DNA from: an uncultured Clostridia bacterium
Lineage (GTDB): Bacteria > Bacillota > Clostridia > TANB77 > CAG-508
Direction: 5' to 3'
DNA length: 64,000 bases
NCBI GenBank assembly: GCA_944387405.1
Contig: CALXET010000003.1
Coordinates: 143,758 to 207,757, forward strand
Made by a program: the position numbers and the translations under genes. The notes beneath the pieces are model-generated. The model saw nothing but the letters and a program-made list of their open reading frames with translations. It was not told the origin of the DNA and ran no database searches. Of this stretch, positions 22,433 through 54,287 are shown piece by piece. Each line of letters begins with the position of its first letter. Position 1 is the stretch's first letter.

Positions 22433-24223
22433 TTAATTTTCATATTCTTTAGAATCTTTTACATCTTCTAAATCAAGTTTAATATGAACATCTTTTAATT
22501 GTTCTTCTGTTACTTTAGAAGGAGCTCTCATTAATAAATCTCTTGCTTTCTTATTTTTTGGGAAGGCTATAACTTCTCTTATATTATCCTCTCCTGCAAT
22601 AAGCATTACAATTCTATCAATACCTGGAGCTGCTCCTGCATGTGGAGGTGTTCCATAACTAAATGCATTATATAAAGCACCAAATCTATTTTTTACATCT
22701 TCTTCTTTATATCCTGCAATCTCAAAAGCTCTAATCATAATTTCTTGATCATGGTTTCTAACAGCACCTGAAGCTATTTCATATCCATTACATACCAAAT
22801 CATATTGATATGCATATATATCTAATGGATCTTTAGTATTTAATGCTTCTAATCCTCCTTGAGGCATTGAAAATGGATTATGATTAAAATCTATTGTTCC
22901 TTCATCTGATAATTCATACATTGGAAAATCTACTATCCAACAGAATTTGAATATATCTTTTTCTATTAAGTCTAATCTTTTTCCAAGTTCTATTCTAACA
23001 TTTCCAGCTATTTTTTGAGCTTTTTCAAATTCATCTGCGACAAAGAATATAGCAGAATTTTTACTAGCACCTACAAGATTCATTAATTTATTTTTTTGTT
23101 CTTCTGTAATAAATTTAGAAATACCACCTGTCAAATTAGATTCTTCATCTACTTTAACCCATGCTAAACCTTTAGCTCCAAATTCTTCTACCGCATATTC
23201 AGACATTTGATCAAAGAACTTTCTTGGTCTATCTTGCATATTATCTGTTTTTATCACTTTGATTGTCTTTCCTTTAAAAGCATTAAATTCAGTATCTTTA
23301 AAAATCTCTGTAGCGTCTTCTATTACTAAAGGATTTCTCAAATCTGGTTTATCTGTACCGTACTTATCCATAGCTTCTTTAAATGGAATACGTACAAATG
23401 GAGCTTCAGTAATCTTTAATTTACTATTTTTCTTAAATACATTTGGTATTACCCTTTCTAGTACTTCAAAAACATCTTCTTGTGTCGCAAAAGACATCTC
23501 TAAATCTAATTGATAAAATTCTCCTGGTGATCTATCAGCTCTTGGATCCTCATCTCTAAAACAAGGTGCAATTTGATAATATTTATTAAATCCAGATATC
23601 ATTAATAATTGTTTAAATTGTTGTGGAGCCTGTGGAAGTGCATAAAATTCTCCTGGATGCAATCTACTTGGAACTAAAAAGTCTCTTGCTCCTTCTGGAG
23701 ATGAATTTGCTAAAATTGGTGTTTGTATTTCAGTAAACCCTTCTTTATCCATTTCATCTCTCATTGTTTTTAATATTCTAGATCTAAGTAAAATATTTTT
23801 ATGAATTTTATCATTTCTTAAATCTAAAAATCTATACTCTAATCTTAAATCTTCTCTTACAGAACCTTCATTTTGCTTTTGATTTATCTCAAAAGGTAAT
23901 ACATTTCTACATTTTCCAAGTACTCTTACATCAGAAGCAATAATCTCTATATCTCCTGTTGGAATTTCTTTATTTTTACTACTTCTTTCTGATACTTTCC
24001 CAGAAAAAGAAACTGCACATTCTGTTGTAAGATCTTTAGTTTTCTTATCCATTTCTTCATTATCAGAAATAATAATTTGTGTAATTCCGAATTCATCTCT
24101 TAGATCAATAAATTTCATTTTTCCTAAATTTCTAATTTTTTGTACCCATCCTGCAAGTCTTACTTCTTGTCCTACATTTTCAATTCTTAATTCACCGCAA
24201 TTATGTGTTCTGTATTCGTTCAT
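22433..24223 (-). CDS. aspS: Aspartate--tRNA ligase
   Basis: 596 aa. Class II aaRS motifs are present: FRDEDPRADRSPGEFYQLDLEMSF, GGLEALN...GxGIDR and the C-terminal GAAPGIDRIVMLIAGE. There is an N-terminal OB-fold anticodon-binding domain. Confidence 0.95.
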   Translation of the reverse strand: MNEYRTHNCGELRIENVGQEVRLAGWVQKIRNLGKMKFIDLRDEFGITQIIISDNEEMDKKTKDLTTECAVSFSGKVSERSSKNKEIPTGDIEIIASDVRVLGKCRNVLPFEINQKQNEGSVREDLRLEYRFLDLRNDKIHKNILLRSRILKTMRDEMDKEGFTEIQTPILANSSPEGARDFLVPSRLHPGEFYALPQAPQQFKQLLMISGFNKYYQIAPCFRDEDPRADRSPGEFYQLDLEMSFATQEDVFEVLERVIPNVFKKNSKLKITEAPFVRIPFKEAMDKYGTDKPDLRNPLVIEDATEIFKDTEFNAFKGKTIKVIKTDNMQDRPRKFFDQMSEYAVEEFGAKGLAWVKVDEESNLTGGISKFITEEQKNKLMNLVGASKNSAIFFVADEFEKAQKIAGNVRIELGKRLDLIEKDIFKFCWIVDFPMYELSDEGTIDFNHNPFSMPQGGLEALNTKDPLDIYAYQYDLVCNGYEIASGAVRNHDQEIMIRAFEIAGYKEEDVKNRFGALYNAFSYGTPPHAGAAPGIDRIVMLIAGEDNIREVIAFPKNKKARDLLMRAPSKVTEEQLKDVHIKLDLEDVKDSKEYEN

Positions 24224-24412
24224 AAAAATTCCTCTTTTCCACTAAAATGTTGATTAAAATTATATACCAAAAACACTAATATATCAATACTTTTATAAAC
24301 TTATTAAAATTCATTTAATTATTTTATTAATTTTTTGTATTGTACATTATTTTTATTATTTGTTATAATATATTTGTAGTTTTACACATTTATTTAAAAG
24401 GAGGAGAACATT

Positions 24413-24985
24413 ATGAAGAACTACGAAATTGCTAATGAGGAAAGAGTTTTTAAGACACCGAGGATGGAAGGCGTAAAGCGGACTTTGAGAGCTGCTGACG
24501 GTGATGAGTTCACTCACACTATCATCAAATCTCAGCCCAGCGTGGCAATTATCGTCCGCAAGGATGGTAAGATTGCATTCATTCGCCAGCTCCGGAGCAC
24601 TACAAATCAGTATTACATTGAAATTCCGGCCGGACTTTTAAATGAGGGTGAAGACTCCATTCTGGACGCTGCAAAGCGTGAAGTCCGTGAGGAAACTGGT
24701 CTTATTGCTAAGAATGTCAAAATTCTGGTGCAGGGGCCGTCTCTGCTGGATCCGAGTAAGTCTGATGAGGACTTCGGAGTTGCAATTGCTGATGTCTGCG
24801 GTCATAAAAAACAGATTCTGGACGAGAACGAACGTATCGATTCTGAGCTGATTTGGCTGCCTGAAGACGAGGTCTTCTCCAGGCTCCGCCAGCAGATGAA
24901 CGAAGGCGTGCCGTTCTACGATGGACTGTTCCTTTCCGGGCACACCATGTACGCACTTCTTGCGTACAGCTTCCTGCGCAAATAA
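24413..24985 (+). CDS. Nudix hydrolase (ADP-ribose pyrophosphatase-like); the gene is strongly GC-rich relative to the genome
   Basis: 190 aa. The Nudix box is GLLNEGEDSILDAAKREVREETGL (G-x5-E-x7/8-REVxEExGL). The CDS is about 50% GC, against roughly 25% around it, by eye. The 5' UTR and RBS (AAAGGAGGAGAACATT-ATG) are native-looking and AT-rich. Confidence 0.8.
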   Translation: MKNYEIANEERVFKTPRMEGVKRTLRAADGDEFTHTIIKSQPSVAIIVRKDGKIAFIRQLRSTTNQYYIEIPAGLLNEGEDSILDAAKREVREETGLIAKNVKILVQGPSLLDPSKSDEDFGVAIADVCGHKKQILDENERIDSELIWLPEDEVFSRLRQQMNEGVPFYDGLFLSGHTMYALLAYSFLRK

Positions 24986-25009
24986 CGCGCTTACGGAAGT
25001 GGTCCTTTT

Positions 25010-25046
25010 CGAGGCTTGGGTCTTCCCGAGCCTCGCCATTTTTATT
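25010..25046 (+). terminator. GC-rich intrinsic terminator of the Nudix gene (cgaggcttgg-gtcttc-ccgagcctcg, then TTTTTATTTATT)
   Basis: A 10-bp stem with one G-U pair and a 6-nt loop, followed by a T-run. It has the same foreign (GC-rich) composition as the gene. Confidence 0.6.
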
Positions 25047-25116
25047 TATTATTTAATTATTCTTTATGTTTTTGGTTTTATAATTTTTAACATTTCTATA
25101 ATTTTGTTTTTATTAT

Positions 25117-25668
25117 TTATTTAATTTTTTCTAGGCACTCTATTAAACATTCTTTAGTAAATCTATTTAGTTCATTAAAATCTTCACTAGATTTATATTT
25201 TTTTATTATGTTATCCTTAACACAATATGCTAATTTATAATCTTCTTTCGTTATTTCTCCTCTATCTAAAGATTCTTTTAATTCATCCTCATCTAATATT
25301 ATAAAATTATTCTCTTTTGTTTGTACAACATCTAAATATAAATCTTCTGCATATGGCACATCTTCCATATATATTTTTCTTGCTATATCAAAATATGTTT
25401 CTACAAAATTATTATTTTCGTCAAATATTGCACTAACAACAACATTAGATTCTAAACCATATATTTGTAACCATCTATATCCATCTGCGTGCATACATTC
25501 TTCTCCGTCTTTTCTTGGAACATACCACTCTTTTTTTACCTTATCTGAAATAACAAGGTAAGCTATTATATTTTTTTCATTATAGTTTTTTTCTATTTTA
25601 GAACATCTCTTACTTATTATATTTTTATGATTTCTATAATCTGCATATTTTATTTTCATATTAATCAT
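25117..25668 (-). CDS. DUF402-like protein (possible Ntdp-type nucleoside tri/diphosphatase)
   Basis: 183 aa. The segments WYVPRKDGE...YGLESNVVVSAIFDENNNFVETYFDIA...YAEDLYLDVVQ...IILDEDEL resemble the DUF402 fold signature. This is a weak recognition. Confidence 0.35.
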   Translation of the reverse strand: MINMKIKYADYRNHKNIISKRCSKIEKNYNEKNIIAYLVISDKVKKEWYVPRKDGEECMHADGYRWLQIYGLESNVVVSAIFDENNNFVETYFDIARKIYMEDVPYAEDLYLDVVQTKENNFIILDEDELKESLDRGEITKEDYKLAYCVKDNIIKKYKSSEDFNELNRFTKECLIECLEKIK

Positions 25669-25785
25669 CTCTTTTTTATTTTTCAGTTATTAATTTTTAA
25701 ATTTTCTTTTTTATTTATTATTTAAAAAAAGTTAAAGCAAGTAATAATATTTATTACCTGCTTTAAAAATTAACTATAGAAATTA

Positions 25786-27485: not shown

Positions 27486-29135
27486 TTATTTTATATTATT
27501 TTTATTCTTATTATATTCTTTACTTGCTTTTATAAAAGCTACAAATAAAGGAGCTGGTCTATCTGGTCTTGATTTAAATTCAGGATGAAATTGTCCTGCT
27601 ATAAAAAATGGATGTTTATTATATTCTACAATTTCTACTAATTCACCATCAGGTGATGTTCCTGAGCAGATTAATCCTTCTTTTTCAAACATTTCCTTAT
27701 AGTCATTGTTATATTCATATCTATGTCTATGTCTTTCTTCAATATTTTCTGTTTTATATATTTTATATGCTAATGAATTTTTCTTTATTTTGCAAGGATA
27801 TTTTCCAAGTCTCATTGTACCACCTTTTTTAGTAATTCCTTTTTGATTTTCCATTATATGAATTACAGGATGTCTTGTATTTTTATCAAATTCAGCAGAG
27901 GAAGCATCTTTTAAATTTAGTACATCCCTTGCAAATTCAATTACTGCAAGTTGCATTCCAAGACATATTCCTAGAAATGGAACATTATTTTCTCTTGCAT
28001 ATCTGATTGCTTCTATCTTACCTTCTATTCCCCTATTTCCAAATCCACCTGGAACTAAAATTCCATCATATTTTCCAAGTATTTCTTTTACATTATCTTT
28101 ATTAATTTTTCCAGAATCGACAAATCCAACTTTTACATTCACATTATTTGCAAATCCACCATGTTTTAAACTTTCTGCAACTGATAAATAAGAATCTTCA
28201 AGTTTCATATATTTTCCTACAATAGCAATATTTATCTCATCTTTAATCTTTCTAATCTTATTTATCATTGATTCCCATTTGTTATTATCTGGTTTTGTTT
28301 TTTTAAGCTTTAGCTTTCTGCATATTGCATCTCCTAATCCTTCTTTTTCTAACATTAATGGTACAGCATATAAATTATCTGCAGTTAAGTTTTGAATAAC
28401 ATCTTCTTTTCTAACATTACAAAATAATGCAAGTTTCTCTTTGATTTCCTCTGGAATTTTTTCATCAGATCTACAAACTAATATATCTGGTTTAATTCCC
28501 ATTGATTGTAAGTCTTTAACTGAATGTTGAGTTGGTTTAGATTTTATTTCTTTTGAACCTGAAATATAAGGAAGCAATGTTACATGTACATATGCAACAT
28601 CACCATCTTCTTTTTCAAGTCCTATTTGTCTAATAGCTTCAACTAAAGCTAATCCTTCAATATCTCCAATAGTTCCACCTAATTCAACTATTGAAATATC
28701 TATATCTGTTCCCTCTATTGAATATATATTCTCTTTAATTTCATTTGTTATATGTGGTATTACTTGAATTGTTTTTCCTAAATATTTTCCTTCTCTTTCT
28801 TTATTTATAACACTTTGATAAATTTGACCTGAACTAACTGATGATTTCTTGCTCAAATTTTCATCAATGAATCTTTCATAATGTCCCAAATCTAAATCTG
28901 TTTCTGCACCATCATCAGTAACAAATACCTCCCCATGCTCATAAGGGCTCATTGTTCCAGGATCTATATTTATATAAGGATCAAATTTTTGTATTGTTAC
29001 CTTATATCCCCTATTTTTTAGTAATCTTCCAAGTGATGCCGCAGTAATACCTTTTCCTAGCCCTGATACTACTCCACCAGTTACAAATACGTATTTTTTG
29101 TTCATATCGTAATACCTCTCTTTCTCCAAAAACAA
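27486..29135 (-). CDS. pyrG: CTP synthase
   Basis: 549 aa. The N-terminal synthetase domain starts [15 protein letters not shown]. The C-terminal glutamine amidotransferase has the catalytic triad contexts GICLGMQ and GQFHPEFKS. Confidence 0.95.
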
Positions 29136-38035: not shown

Positions 38036-38695
38036 TTAACGCAACTTCACGAAAACATTGTCCAGTTTTATAACTTGGACATACTCAAAACCGAAATCAA
38101 CAGCAACCCAATAAATAGTGTTTCCTTCAAGTAGCACATCATTTGCAGAAACAACAATTGGATTTGGCAAATGACCATACCTCTCAACAAAGTGAGTAAC
38201 TCTTTGGTACTTTTTCTGGTTTCTACCATCATCTGGGATTGGTCTTGCGATGATATCTTTAATATCCATCGAAGTTGTCCAATTCCTTGGAAGATCAAAA
38301 CCTCTTTGAAATCTAATCTTTCTTTTTTTCCGATAGATGCTCATTCTGTAGCGTTTTCCATCTTTTTCGTTCATAGTCCTAAAAACCTTAAACTCATAAT
38401 AGTTCAAGTCGCTTTTTTTATTATTGCAACTCTTACATGCTGGAGTCAGATTTGTAGGAATAGATACACCTCCAAAGAACCTAGGAAACATATGATCCAA
38501 AGTCATCTTTGATTTTTTGACGGTCTTTCCACAGTAAGTGCACACTTTTCTACCATTCAGAGCATAACATAAATCATACGCCAACTTTTCCCAAGAAATT
38601 AAGCCGTTAATATATAAGGTATTTTTTCTTACATAGGCACTTGCGGTCCGGTCATTGGTATAATATATGAATTTGCTCGGTAAAGGTATTTTCAT
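38036..38695 (-). CDS. HNH endonuclease family protein (GC-elevated, probably horizontally acquired)
   Basis: 219 aa. The HNH/zinc motif is CTYCGK...LDHMFPRFFGG...CKSCNNKKSD. The CDS is about 38% GC, above the roughly 25% background, by eye. Confidence 0.75.
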   Translation of the reverse strand: MKIPLPSKFIYYTNDRTASAYVRKNTLYINGLISWEKLAYDLCYALNGRKVCTYCGKTVKKSKMTLDHMFPRFFGGVSIPTNLTPACKSCNNKKSDLNYYEFKVFRTMNEKDGKRYRMSIYRKKRKIRFQRGFDLPRNWTTSMDIKDIIARPIPDDGRNQKKYQRVTHFVERYGHLPNPIVVSANDVLLEGNTIYWVAVDFGFEYVQVIKLDNVFVKLR

Positions 38696-53870: not shown

Positions 53871-54287
53871 TTAATGAATAATTTTATCAATGTAGAAATT
53901 TTTTAAATCTATAATATATTCCACATTGACAGGAGTTGATATTGCGCACTCTCTGAGCACCGCTTCGAAAAAACCAGTTTCTGCAGTAATACTGAGTTTG
54001 TTTTTTTCTCTTCCAAAAAATCTTTTTCTCGGATGAAACTTCTTGTTTTCCGGAGCATCTGCATTCTGCATTATTGACAGAACCTCACTATAGACGACTT
54101 TCTTTACAATAGAAGGTTCTTTCTTCATCCTCTGATTCCAGTACTCCACTTCACCTAAGTCATCCATAGCAGTTGCTCTCCAGAATTCGAGATTTTCTAA
54201 ATGATTCCGGCTAACACATTCTGCAAAAGCAGTAGCTACATCTTCTAAAGACTTTCCTTCAAAGATTCTTCCTTCTCTTCTTTCCAT
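53871..54287 (-). CDS. Hypothetical protein with a GC-rich N-terminal two-thirds (last gene of the three-gene cassette)
   Basis: 138 aa. The RBS is AAGGAGAAGG. The first roughly 300 nt are about 40% GC, against roughly 25% around it, by eye, and the 3' end reverts to AT-rich. No recognisable motif. Confidence 0.5.
   Translation of the reverse strand: MERREGRIFEGKSLEDVATAFAECVSRNHLENLEFWRATAMDDLGEVEYWNQRMKKEPSIVKKVVYSEVLSIMQNADAPENKKFHPRKRFFGREKNKLSITAETGFFEAVLRECAISTPVNVEYIIDLKNFYIDKIIH

Follow-up and report, generated by a model that had tools for sequence, protein, structure and literature searches.

Compositional islands in bacterial genomes are routinely taken for horizontal transfer. 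In the 64,000-nt stretch of DNA from an uncultured Clostridia bacterium analyzed here (referred to as the window), such an island is formed by a single gene encoding a Nudix hydrolase, and the question arises whether this gene is a recent acquisition, a product of faulty assembly, or a resident of the genome whose composition is maintained. The initial annotation had described the sharp, unameliorated boundary of an acquired gene, and had listed very recent transfer, a gene-sized recombination patch and an assembly chimera as possible explanations.

A sliding-window analysis confirmed that the Nudix gene is a single-gene GC island in AT-rich DNA. The GC content of the window is 0.260 (200-nt windows: mean 0.259, SD 0.053), and the sole stretch exceeding 0.45 in 200-nt windows over this whole length was 24401-25100, with a maximum of 0.535 (∼+5 SD). 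The GC content of the Nudix coding sequence (573 nt) is 0.485, and that of the 3′UTR with the terminator (24986-25046) is 0.541. Values of 0.159 and 0.10 were obtained for the 5′ (24224-24412) and 3′ (25047-25116) intergenic regions, respectively, and of 0.292 and 0.232 for the flanking genes aspS and DUF402. The codon usage of the gene is foreign to the host: its three codon positions have GC contents of 0.57, 0.35 and 0.54, compared to means of 0.39, 0.29 and 0.125 for the 42 other ORFs of the window (GC3 SD 0.04, maximum 0.34). Codons CTG, CTC, CGC, CGG, CCC and ACC, essentially absent from host genes, are used freely.

The boundaries of the island were also defined. On the 5′ side, the switch in composition, which had been placed within the first codons, was located inside the first ∼11 codons, with 30-nt windows at ≥0.47 from position 24446 on. 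On the 3′ side, the GC block ends with the terminator stem (25035), which is followed by a T-run; the stem-loop comprises 26 nt (25010-25035) and not the 37 nt originally assigned to it. As had been noted, the GC-rich coding sequence is preceded by an AT-rich native promoter and ribosome-binding site, and there are no mobility genes within ±10 kb. The antisense ORFs, already suspected of being spurious, do not exceed in length those found in synonymous shuffles. A hidden overlapping or antisense gene was rejected, since none of the five alternative frames differed from synonymous shuffles in its stop-free runs.

The Nudix gene forms a monocistronic unit that comprises an AT-rich promoter, a ribosome-binding site and a terminator (Table 1). 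The predicted promoter gave 10/12 matches in a consensus scan, plus TG ahead of the −10 element, and the intergenic region that bears it is 98–99% identical between strains with different Nudix alleles. The ribosome-binding site is conserved in the related loci L011, L013 and L015.

Table 1. Features of the Nudix locus and its transcript (positions within the window)
Feature	Position	Strand	Description
Sigma-70-type promoter (predicted)	24341..24369	+	TGTACA, 17-nt spacer, TG-extended TATAAT; in AT-rich intergenic DNA
Ribosome-binding site	24397..24406	+	AAAGGAGGAG; 3′ end 6 nt before ATG; read from sequence
Nudix hydrolase CDS (putative ADP-ribose-pyrophosphatase type)	24413..24985	+	190 aa; GC 48.5%, GC3 0.54
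AT-rich unstructured ramp	24413..24448	+	first ∼12 codons; 30-nt GC ≤0.40 until ∼24446
CDS-internal hairpin	24948..24968	+	TGTACGCA-cttct-TGCGTACA; encodes MYALLAY; hairpin map, family-wide alifold
Small hairpin across the stop codon	24976..24990	+	GCGC-aaataac-GCGC; MFE structure; helix 25 of clade consensus
Intrinsic terminator (predicted)	25010..25046	+	11-bp GC-rich stem, 4-nt loop (25010-25035), T-run; terminator scan
DUF402 gene, convergent	25117..25668	-	host composition (23% GC); Pfam PF04167, E 1.2e-11

An assembly chimera was refuted by comparison with other assemblies. The exact Nudix protein was found in the aspS|Nudix|DUF402 context in 23 or more independently assembled contigs, which stem from at least two projects. 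The junctions were identical in all of them, and strains of ∼99% identity differ by 10 synonymous SNPs within the island. The same aspS slot of the same and sister species is occupied by eight alleles or orthologues with 60–89% nucleotide identity, all of 44–52.5% GC, within flanks of 21–27% GC. Their synonymous sites are saturated (pS 0.59–0.93), and DUF402, which diverges together with the Nudix gene, keeps a GC3 of 0.12. The Nudix gene was present in this slot in every relative recovered (L001-L016, L108-L111), and none of them had an empty aspS|DUF402 site. The dN/dS ratio of ∼0.07–0.10 argues that the protein works, and the earlier assumption of a functional enzyme probably holds.

These data left the sharpness of the boundary standing, but not the recent acquisition. 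The locus resembles a horizontally acquired genomic islet in its abrupt, gene-sized departure from host GC content and codon usage. It differs from one in that the slot is shared by all relatives examined, mobility genes, tRNA genes and repeats are lacking (no tRNA gene lies within the window, and a search for flanking direct repeats gave AT-rich low-complexity matches only), GC3 is kept at saturated synonymous sites, and moderate-GC donors are nearly absent. Since no member of the Nudix family was found in viral contigs, a phage vector is unlikely. Slow evolution preserving an ancestral composition and conserved sequence at synonymous sites were both rejected because of the pS values of 0.6–0.9. 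The sharp composition boundaries speak for a chimera or a very recent single-gene transfer; the identical junctions in independent assemblies, the internal SNPs and the GC-rich syntenic orthologues with saturated divergence in sister species make such an origin extremely improbable. The island is very probably an old resident gene with maintained GC-richness. A textbook-looking compositional island may therefore be an old resident, and reliance on outliers in GC content and codon usage can lead to false predictions of transfer where genomes are AT-rich.

Recombination has nevertheless occurred at this locus. The Nudix and DUF402 genes (∼24400-25670) show 74–78% identity in strains that are 99.4% identical in the flanks. 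For DUF402, the nucleotide identity between such strains is 77.7%, compared to 94.7% to a different species. The window species carries two deeply divergent alleles of the Nudix + DUF402 pair, which are exchanged jointly as one allelic cassette. Strain diversity was also found to be elevated in aspS and pyrG. The proposed recombination patch thus exists, comprising both genes, but leaves the composition of the island unexplained, because the co-transferred DUF402 is AT-rich and both Nudix alleles are GC-rich.

A gene-specific neutral bias, such as a deviating local spectrum of mutations or GC-biased gene conversion at a hot spot of recombination, would find some support in the recombinogenic nature of the locus, with its divergent alleles in one species, its mosaic similarity to another and the elevated diversity of aspS and pyrG. 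However, DUF402 and the intergenic DNA of the same recombination tract have GC contents of only 10–23%, the boundaries of the GC block track the transcript rather than the tract, and the same anomaly recurs in five unrelated contexts (see below). Neither covariation nor an excess of hairpins is predicted by a neutral bias, which we consider very unlikely.

The distribution of the GC excess was analyzed in the whole Nudix family, for which about 144 homologues were identified. Family loci were collected by a codon-blind motif scan combined with contig look-ups, which gave 26 loci with at least 2 kb of flanking sequence. The hosts have GC contents of 0.24–0.31, and the genes a mean GC of 0.44 and a mean GC3 of 0.46. 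Among 326 ORFs from 363 kb of host DNA, the top 17 GC3 values all belonged to Nudix family members. Third codon positions in the family are near equimolar and include codons that the host never uses. The family was found in at least five genomic contexts, each conserved within a clade and differing between clades. Copies of clade B adjoin a relaxase/MobC module, and most contexts are without mobility genes. A scan of GTDB genomes with the family alignment yielded at least one true family member (L017) among the matches listed. No earlier report of a Nudix gene that is conserved and GC-rich in AT-rich bacteria was found in our literature searches.

Such a pattern might still arise by repeated import from a moderate-GC bacterial reservoir, with the gene or cassette being replaced before amelioration. 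The history of the cassette is decoupled from that of the genome in the window species, one clade lies beside mobilisation genes, and the flanks of two family members are richer in GC (L097, 45%; L088, 39%), both on short contigs. However, 22–23 of 25 codon-blind matches, and all of the homologues that were looked up, were located in hosts of ≤32% GC, and the genomic context is conserved within clades. The exchanged cassette includes the AT-rich DUF402 and AT-rich spacers, which indicates that the donors are AT-rich relatives and counts against a moderate-GC source. Moreover, there are no flanking repeats and no copies in viral contigs, and import would not make hairpins at synonymous sites. 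Repeated import is therefore improbable.

The folding of the transcripts was examined by comparing the MFE with that of synonymous-codon shuffles and, for some genes, also of dinucleotide shuffles. Most family members gave z-scores of −4 to −12 against synonymous-codon shuffles, compared to +0.3 to −2.2 for host genes. In the window clade the folding excess was modest (codon-shuffle z −0.15 to −3.1). The window gene itself had z −3.06 on the sense strand, a value reached by 0/60 shuffles, and z −0.58 on the antisense strand. With dinucleotide shuffles, z was −4.7 for the window transcript versus −3.3 for the host DUF402 gene, and −11 for L086. Genes of clade A contain 6–9 perfect stems of ≥7 bp, compared to 1.7 expected. 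The MFE density of the family (−0.31 to −0.39 kcal/mol/nt) lies well apart from that of host genes (∼−0.16 to −0.20), and it converges via high GC in the window clade and via engineered hairpins in clade A. The same folding stability is thus attained by different routes, GC content in one clade and hairpins at synonymous sites in another.

The strand on which the excess resides bears on whether RNA or DNA is the paired molecule. If pairing mattered at the DNA level, the palindromes would form hairpins or cruciforms while the DNA is single-stranded or supercoiled (in replication, transformation or conjugation); alternatively, they would be generated by template-switch mutation. The stems of clade A form perfect Watson-Crick palindromes, and the excess stability is equally high on the antisense strand (L086, z −9.7; L102, z −7.5), so a DNA-level cause is still a candidate in this clade, and the relaxase/MobC module beside the clade B copies would also fit. 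In contrast, owing to G·U pairs, the sense strand shows the larger excess in the window gene, L094, L083, L095 and L082. The GC block coincides with the body of the transcript, from the ramp to the terminator, and mobility genes are absent from most contexts. Taken together, pairing of DNA has a low probability as the explanation.

To look for conservation of the RNA structure, compensatory double changes were counted in an alignment of eight alleles. There were 37 such pairs, compared to 17.2±2.9 in shuffles (0/500) and 7–16 in slid controls, a count based on eight related sequences only and on a consensus structure derived from the same alignment. The CDS-internal hairpin corresponds to helix 22 of the clade consensus and contains three compensatory pairs; it is the single helix common to almost all Nudix family members, the others being clade-specific. 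The terminator stem (helix 26) contains four compensatory pairs among the eight alleles. This 3′ hairpin was also considered as an attC-like site, which was rejected: it is an ordinary terminator. Of 11 strain SNPs, seven are in unpaired positions (32% of positions), and the four located in stems all keep the pair. A search of Rfam gave no match better than E 0.28. It should be noted that GC3 is 0.51 in unpaired and 0.58 in paired columns; specific helices cannot account for the whole GC excess, because GC3 is high in the unpaired columns too.

The high GC3 of unpaired positions would also be expected if selection acted at the level of translation. Host-rare or unused codons (CTG, CTC, CGC, CGG, CCG, CAG) would slow or limit translation, keeping the enzyme scarce or aiding its folding. 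The gene does make free use of codons that the host nearly never employs, and experiments in E. coli have shown that genic GC affects fitness via translation rate and folding (PMC5774297). However, this type of selection does not predict the excess folding, the compensatory changes, the sense-strand bias or the GC-rich 3′UTR, and the third positions are equimolar, without a skew to the rarest codons. We regard it as unlikely, though less so than a cause at the DNA level.

The GC excess of the Nudix gene persists through saturating synonymous divergence and is family-wide, and it is accompanied by excess folding stability, apparent covariation and a sense-strand bias. From this we infer that the excess is caused by selection and not by a gene-specific mutational bias, that RNA is the target, and that the cell derives a benefit. 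The Nudix gene is very probably a resident, vertically inherited, functional gene whose ∼50% GC body is a conserved family property in uncultured Clostridia of 24–31% GC. A force on the nucleic acid itself would hold this GC content against the strong AT mutation pressure of the hosts, and the likeliest such force may be selection for a stably and extensively base-paired transcript. We give about even chances to transcript folding being the selected trait. A folded transcript fits the data, since the GC block also spans the 3′UTR and terminator and spares the first codons. The AT-rich first ∼12 codons would keep the start site open; family-wide, codons 2–9 have GC3 values of 0.13–0.48 versus ∼0.5 in later codons. 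The benefit may lie in a message that is long-lived or resists nucleases, or in a throttling of translation.

By our own rough estimate, S≈2 per site would be required to hold GC3 at ∼0.5 with the equilibrium at ∼0.125, which is strong selection for a gene encoding a small enzyme. The locus may thus be a natural example of selection acting strongly on nucleotides, with GC3 of ∼0.5 held against an equilibrium near 0.12, and this selection would be strong enough to shift the Arg/Lys usage of the protein. The long retention of a conserved, GC-rich, strongly self-pairing coding sequence in AT-rich Clostridia is unusual for a protein-coding gene.

Two known situations offer parallels. GC-rich structured RNA genes (rRNA, tRNA, tmRNA, riboswitches) likewise form GC islands in AT-rich genomes, with boundaries equal to those of the transcript and with compensatory changes, and the folding stability of the Nudix gene is ∼2× that of host genes. 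Stable RNA structure in AT-rich genomes requires higher GC, and GC content serves to find structured RNA genes in such genomes (PMC2704228; Klein et al. 2002 cited there). By analogy, the Nudix mRNA could be GC-rich for the same reason as rRNA, tRNA and other structured RNAs. Unlike these, it codes for a conserved protein on which purifying selection is strong, belongs to no Rfam family, and has only one family-wide helix, the remaining ones being clade-specific.

Rare-codon control of expression is represented by bldA/TTA in GC-rich Streptomyces. The Nudix gene, with its codons that the host hardly uses, is a mirror image of that system (GC-ending codons in an AT-rich host). However, the whole coding sequence is affected instead of one or a few codons, and no dedicated tRNA was identified, the window being devoid of tRNA genes.

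A more specific form of the folded-transcript explanation, which we put forward as a tentative and rather doubtful suggestion, is that an rRNA-like GC content and dense hairpins let the mRNA survive, or remain available for translation, while most of the AU-rich transcriptome is broken down or blocked. This might happen in dormancy, under the action of toxin or abortive-infection RNases or of RNA-modifying toxins, or in NAD+/ADP-ribose crises, which an ADP-ribose hydrolase would help to resolve. If this were true, coding GC islands in AT-rich genomes would be a genomic signature of stability-selected mRNAs or dual-function RNAs. The Nudix case is testable: recoding of the gene would show the importance of mRNA structure and its gain to the cell.

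Finally, the Nudix protein was compared with known families and structures. It matches Pfam PF00293 (NUDIX) over residues 41-160 with 57 bits against a curated cut-off of 21.1 (E 2.7e-15). All NCBIfam equivalog or curated cut-offs were missed (NudE, 37.6 versus 169; TIGR00052 (YffH/AdpP), 23.4 versus 79.55; PRK10729, 19.2 versus 248). In PDB, the closest relatives of the family profile are ADP-ribose pyrophosphatases (ADPRases), headed by T. thermophilus Ndx4 (1v8i, E 5e-20); the protein is therefore predicted to be an ADPRase-type hydrolase. The DUF402 partner gave no sequence match in PDB. A role as an anti-phage defence component was rejected, as among PADLOC defence models the Nudix protein gave only a weak generic match (PDC-S07, E 9e-5), and DUF402 and a zinc-ribbon neighbour gave none.

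To our knowledge, no ADPRase with a compositionally anomalous gene has been reported, and none was found in our literature searches. The window family shares with characterized ADPRases (T. thermophilus Ndx4, NudF/YqkG, B. methanolicus Act, human NUDT5) the Nudix fold, the catalytic REx2EE motif, a similar size (∼190 aa) and an N-terminal extension. It differs from them in the sub-threshold equivalog scores given above. The sequence REVREETGL, previously annotated as an intact Nudix box, is present, and residues G74, E80, R89, E90, E93, E94 and G96 are invariant across 20 homologues; the window clade, however, has an x8 spacer from E80 to R89, instead of the canonical x7 of the other clades (pattern Gx5Ex7REUxEExGU). 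The window family is further distinguished from these enzymes by a motif of its own, LLDPSKSDE.

The initial annotation had described the Nudix hydrolase gene as a single-gene GC-rich island, which was confirmed by a GC scan of the window, by codon positions, by the composition of the parts of the gene and by a match to Pfam NUDIX (E 2.7e-15). The GC content of the window is 26.0% (200-nt windows: mean 0.259, SD 0.053), and 24401-25100 is the sole stretch exceeding 0.45 in 200-nt windows, with a peak of 0.535. GC by codon position is 0.57/0.35/0.54 in the Nudix gene and averages 0.39/0.29/0.125 in the other window ORFs (n = 42; SD of GC at third codon positions, GC3, 0.04). One switch in composition falls inside the first ~11 codons and the other at the base of the terminator stem, whose stem-loop measures 26 nt and not the 37 nt previously assigned to it. 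After the Nudix gene, the strongest GC3 outlier in the window is an ORF for a 219-aa HNH endonuclease (Pfam HNH_5, E 1.3e-11; GC 0.35, GC3 0.34), possibly mobile or of foreign origin. Another ORF, of 138 aa (GC 0.36, GC3 0.30), overlaps the one other 200-nt window at 0.40 GC.

Coordinates of the features discussed in the text
Feature	Sequence	Position (strand)	GC
aspS	window	22433-24223	
5' intergenic	window	24224-24412	15.9%
TG-extended sigma-70-type promoter of the Nudix gene	window	24341-24369	
GGAGG ribosome-binding site of the Nudix gene	window		
Divergent tract, Nudix + DUF402	window	~24400-25670	
Nudix CDS	window	24413-24985 (+)	48.5%
Nudix box, residues 74-97	window	24632-24703	
MYALLAY hairpin	window	24948-24968	
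3'UTR + terminator	window	24986-25046	54%
Terminator stem, 11 bp	window	25010-25035	
3' intergenic	window	25047-25116	10%
DUF402 gene	window	25117-25668 (-)	
pyrG	window	27486-29135	
HNH endonuclease ORF	window	38036-38695 (-)	0.35
138-aa ORF	window	53871-54287 (-)	0.36
200-nt window overlapped by the 138-aa ORF	window	54051-54250	0.40
Clade A Nudix CDS	L086	8697-9254	
Relaxed Nudix copy	L091	11646-12224	
Neighbours with raised GC3	L091	8758-10263, 11140-11481	
DapD-like acyltransferase	L015	1279-2061	
GC3 outlier	L084	13457-13813	

With the family profile, the closest solved structures were ADP-ribose pyrophosphatases, T. thermophilus Ndx4 being the best match (E 5e-20), followed by other ADPRases, B. 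methanolicus Act, NudF and NUDT5. None of the NCBIfam equivalog cut-offs was reached, and the Nudix box of the window clade (eight alleles from the slot downstream of aspS) reads G-x5-E-x8-REVREETGL, with the canonical x7 spacer in other clades. The protein is therefore called an ADPRase-type Nudix hydrolase, a putative substrate class read from sequence. It matched none of the defence-system models.

Of the causes originally proposed for the island, an assembly chimera was excluded. The assembly collection lists the exact protein in 71 blocks, and the order aspS/Nudix/DUF402 was found in 23 of the 23 contigs read, which belong to independent assemblies (ENA ERZ2477…, 'BRZ', and ERZ2861…, 'ONAT22'). 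One locus (L004) is identical to the window, while nine further loci are ~99% identical, with 10 synonymous SNPs within the island plus a single SNP in the 3'UTR. Since the assemblies are independent and SNPs lie inside the island, the junctions are real and the island is older than strain diversification. Among these strains (L001-L010), variable sites amount to 8.4% in aspS, 11.7% in pyrG (a value inflated in part by a broken assembly in L007) and 1.4-4% in the neighbours of the two genes, which suggests that the aspS and pyrG diversity represents imported recombination tracts.

A very recent transfer was not supported either. Contigs were located for homologues with 91, 91, 88, 85, 77, 74 and 73% protein identity; wherever flanks are present, the gene occupies the slot directly downstream of aspS. 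These genes have a GC content of 44-52.5% (GC3 0.38-0.62) in flanks of 21-27% GC, and the synonymous difference between Nudix alleles (pS) is 0.59-0.93. Together with this high pS, the low dN/dS (about 0.07-0.10) places the protein under strong purifying selection; to judge from the alleles, its synonymous sequence is free to change, composition alone being retained. The adjacent DUF402 gene diverged alongside it, its two main alleles differing by dN 0.19, and is nonetheless at host composition (GC3 0.12).

The third proposed cause, a recombination patch, does exist but does not explain the GC content. Two loci of the same species as the window (L013 and L014; comEC, SH3-NlpC/P60 and zinc-ribbon genes 99.4% identical, both outer intergenic regions 98-99% identical) show 74.2% nucleotide identity in the Nudix CDS and 77.7% in DUF402, and the edges of the divergent tract coincide with the outer start codon on either side. 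At L011, from a different species (comEC 68.6%), DUF402 is 94.7% and Nudix 80.3% identical to the window. The closeness of the L011 DUF402 and the divergence of L013 and L014 indicate that a two-gene cassette was swapped between related AT-rich lineages. Both Nudix alleles are GC-rich and both DUF402 alleles AT-rich; recombination relocates the anomaly without creating it. The two cassette alleles are both common (71 blocks for the window allele, 39 for that of the second Nudix protein, P0009), and such deep alleles in one species could reflect co-adapted partners, balanced polymorphism or plain inter-species recombination.

Distant homologues (54-74% identity) in quite different contexts are also single-gene GC islands, for example L081 (Nudix 48% GC, host 27%; adjoining relaxase and MobC genes) and L082 (50% and 25%; between mscS and a two-component system). 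A scan of metagenome contigs with a degenerate, codon-choice-blind pattern built on the family's LLDPSKS[DN]E[DN][FY]xV motif identified 25 further members; a degenerate-pattern scan of viral contigs identified none. The known hosts are uncultured Clostridia, represented by MAGs only. At the 26 loci with at least 2 kb of flank, host GC is 0.24-0.31 (mean 0.268) and the Nudix gene averages 0.44 GC and 0.46 GC3, and among 326 ORFs (363 kb of host DNA) the top 17 GC3 values all belong to the family. The long-branch copy L091 is an exception, wholly relaxed to host composition (GC3 0.14), and the only candidate moderate-GC hosts are L097 (45% GC flank) and L088 (39%), both short contigs. The gene context is constant inside each clade and differs among clades (aspS slot; thyA-folA or thyX; relaxase + MobC; response regulator/histidine kinase pair; P-type ATPase), which fits long vertical residence. 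We are confident that the gene in the island is a long-standing resident whose GC-rich composition is actively maintained, and that it is not an artefact or a recent acquisition.

The codons CTG, CTC, CGC, CGG, CCC and ACC are virtually absent from host genes; in the window Nudix gene, 9 of 18 Leu codons are CTG, 6 of 13 Arg codons CGC or CGG, 7 of 7 Gln codons CAG and 5 of 7 Pro codons CCG. Selection of rare codons for slow or limited translation (compare PMC5774297) is an unlikely explanation of this usage. Third positions are near-equimolar in the family (A 0.21, C 0.24, G 0.26, T 0.28; host 0.49, 0.04, 0.07 and 0.40), and invariant Arg positions encoded by CGN indicate the standard genetic code. 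GC1 follows GC3 across the family (Spearman 0.68) and R/(R+K) is 0.2 in AT-rich copies and climbs to about 0.6 in the GC-rich copies; the composition pressure extends to the protein sequence. Codons 2-9 are AT-rich throughout the family.

When MFE was compared with synonymous-codon shuffles, z was -4 to -12 in most family members (-6 to -9 in L102, L094 and L095) and +0.3 to -2.2 in host genes (n = 5). L086 folds at -216 vs -147 kcal/mol in the shuffles, and its z is -11 with dinucleotide-preserving shuffles. The excess stability comes from local, near-perfect hairpins at synonymous positions; clade A of the family has 6-9 stems of at least 7 bp vs 1.7 expected, reached by 0 of 200 shuffles. 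Absolute stability converges across the family at about -0.31 to -0.39 kcal/mol/nt (host genes, -0.16 to -0.20), attained by clade A at GC3 about 0.45 via hairpins and by the window clade at GC3 0.51-0.62 with little added arrangement. The signal of the window gene is modest (sense z -3.06, 0 of 60 shuffles; antisense z -0.58), the remaining seven alleles of its clade give z -0.15 to -2.9, and with dinucleotide shuffles the whole window transcript scores -4.7, yet the host DUF402 gene -3.3.

In the clade A CDSs (L086, L102, L098, L103, L084), 6-9 hairpins with stems 7-15 bp long are perfect palindromes, such as TCAAAAAGTTGC-gaga-GCAACTTTTTGA; the folding energy is -0.32 to -0.39 kcal/mol/nt, with z as low as -12, and is equally good on either strand. 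That palindromes act at the DNA level seems improbable. A hidden overlapping gene was rejected, as alternative-frame and antisense ORFs are not longer than in synonymous shuffles.

Covariation was tested in the alignment of eight related alleles with an RNAalifold consensus of 138 pairs derived from the same sequences. Compensatory double changes were found in 37 pairs, compared to 17.2±2.9 in shuffled alignments (0 of 500 reached 37) and 7-16 in slid-partner controls; the respective covariation scores were 0.245, 0.178±0.009 and 0.058-0.103. Candidate helices with this support include that of the MYALLAY hairpin, which is the sole helix common to the whole family, a hairpin formed across the stop codon, and the terminator stem. 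Unpaired positions make up 32% of the total and hold seven of the 11 strain SNPs (binomial estimate, p≈0.03); the pair is kept in all four SNPs located in stems. GC3 is 0.51 in unpaired and 0.58 in paired columns, which counts against a purely helix-based explanation.

We propose, with moderate confidence, that the most likely mechanism is selection for a transcript that pairs stably and extensively. GC-richness would be the means to such pairing, the AT-rich first codons would keep initiation open, and the benefit to the cell may be, for instance, a message that lasts longer or withstands nucleases, or a throttling of translation. GC-richness likewise serves base pairing in structural RNA genes when the genome is AT-rich (PMC2704228). 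Repeated import from moderate-GC donors is an improbable alternative, and a local neutral bias, e.g., biased gene conversion, a very improbable one: both are poorly compatible with the AT-rich DUF402 gene and spacers within the exchanged tract, with the constant context inside each clade and with the excess of hairpins and covariation. The Nudix island is akin to known compositional islands, GC-rich structured RNAs and coding-region structure. No account of such a GC-rich gene family was found in the searchable literature, and we know of no prior description. It is unusual as a protein-coding family that, in genomes of about 26% GC, keeps to an rRNA-like level of both composition and folding stability.

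The slot directly downstream of Nudix in clade A holds thyA-folA (L084, L086, L090, L106) or thyX (L098, L102, L103, L107), which looks like a thymidylate-synthase-type swap, the neighbours being named from N-terminal sequences only. In clade B (L081, L087, L093, L094, L101), Nudix lies beside a small mobilisation/replication module (relaxase, MobC/NikA, RepA_N, TnpV) and a GIY-YIG gene, all AT-rich. Two neighbours of the L091 copy have raised GC3 (0.36, 0.39), and one of them resembles adenylosuccinate synthetase. Sporadic GC3 outliers were also found in L015 (0.41) and L084 (0.45).
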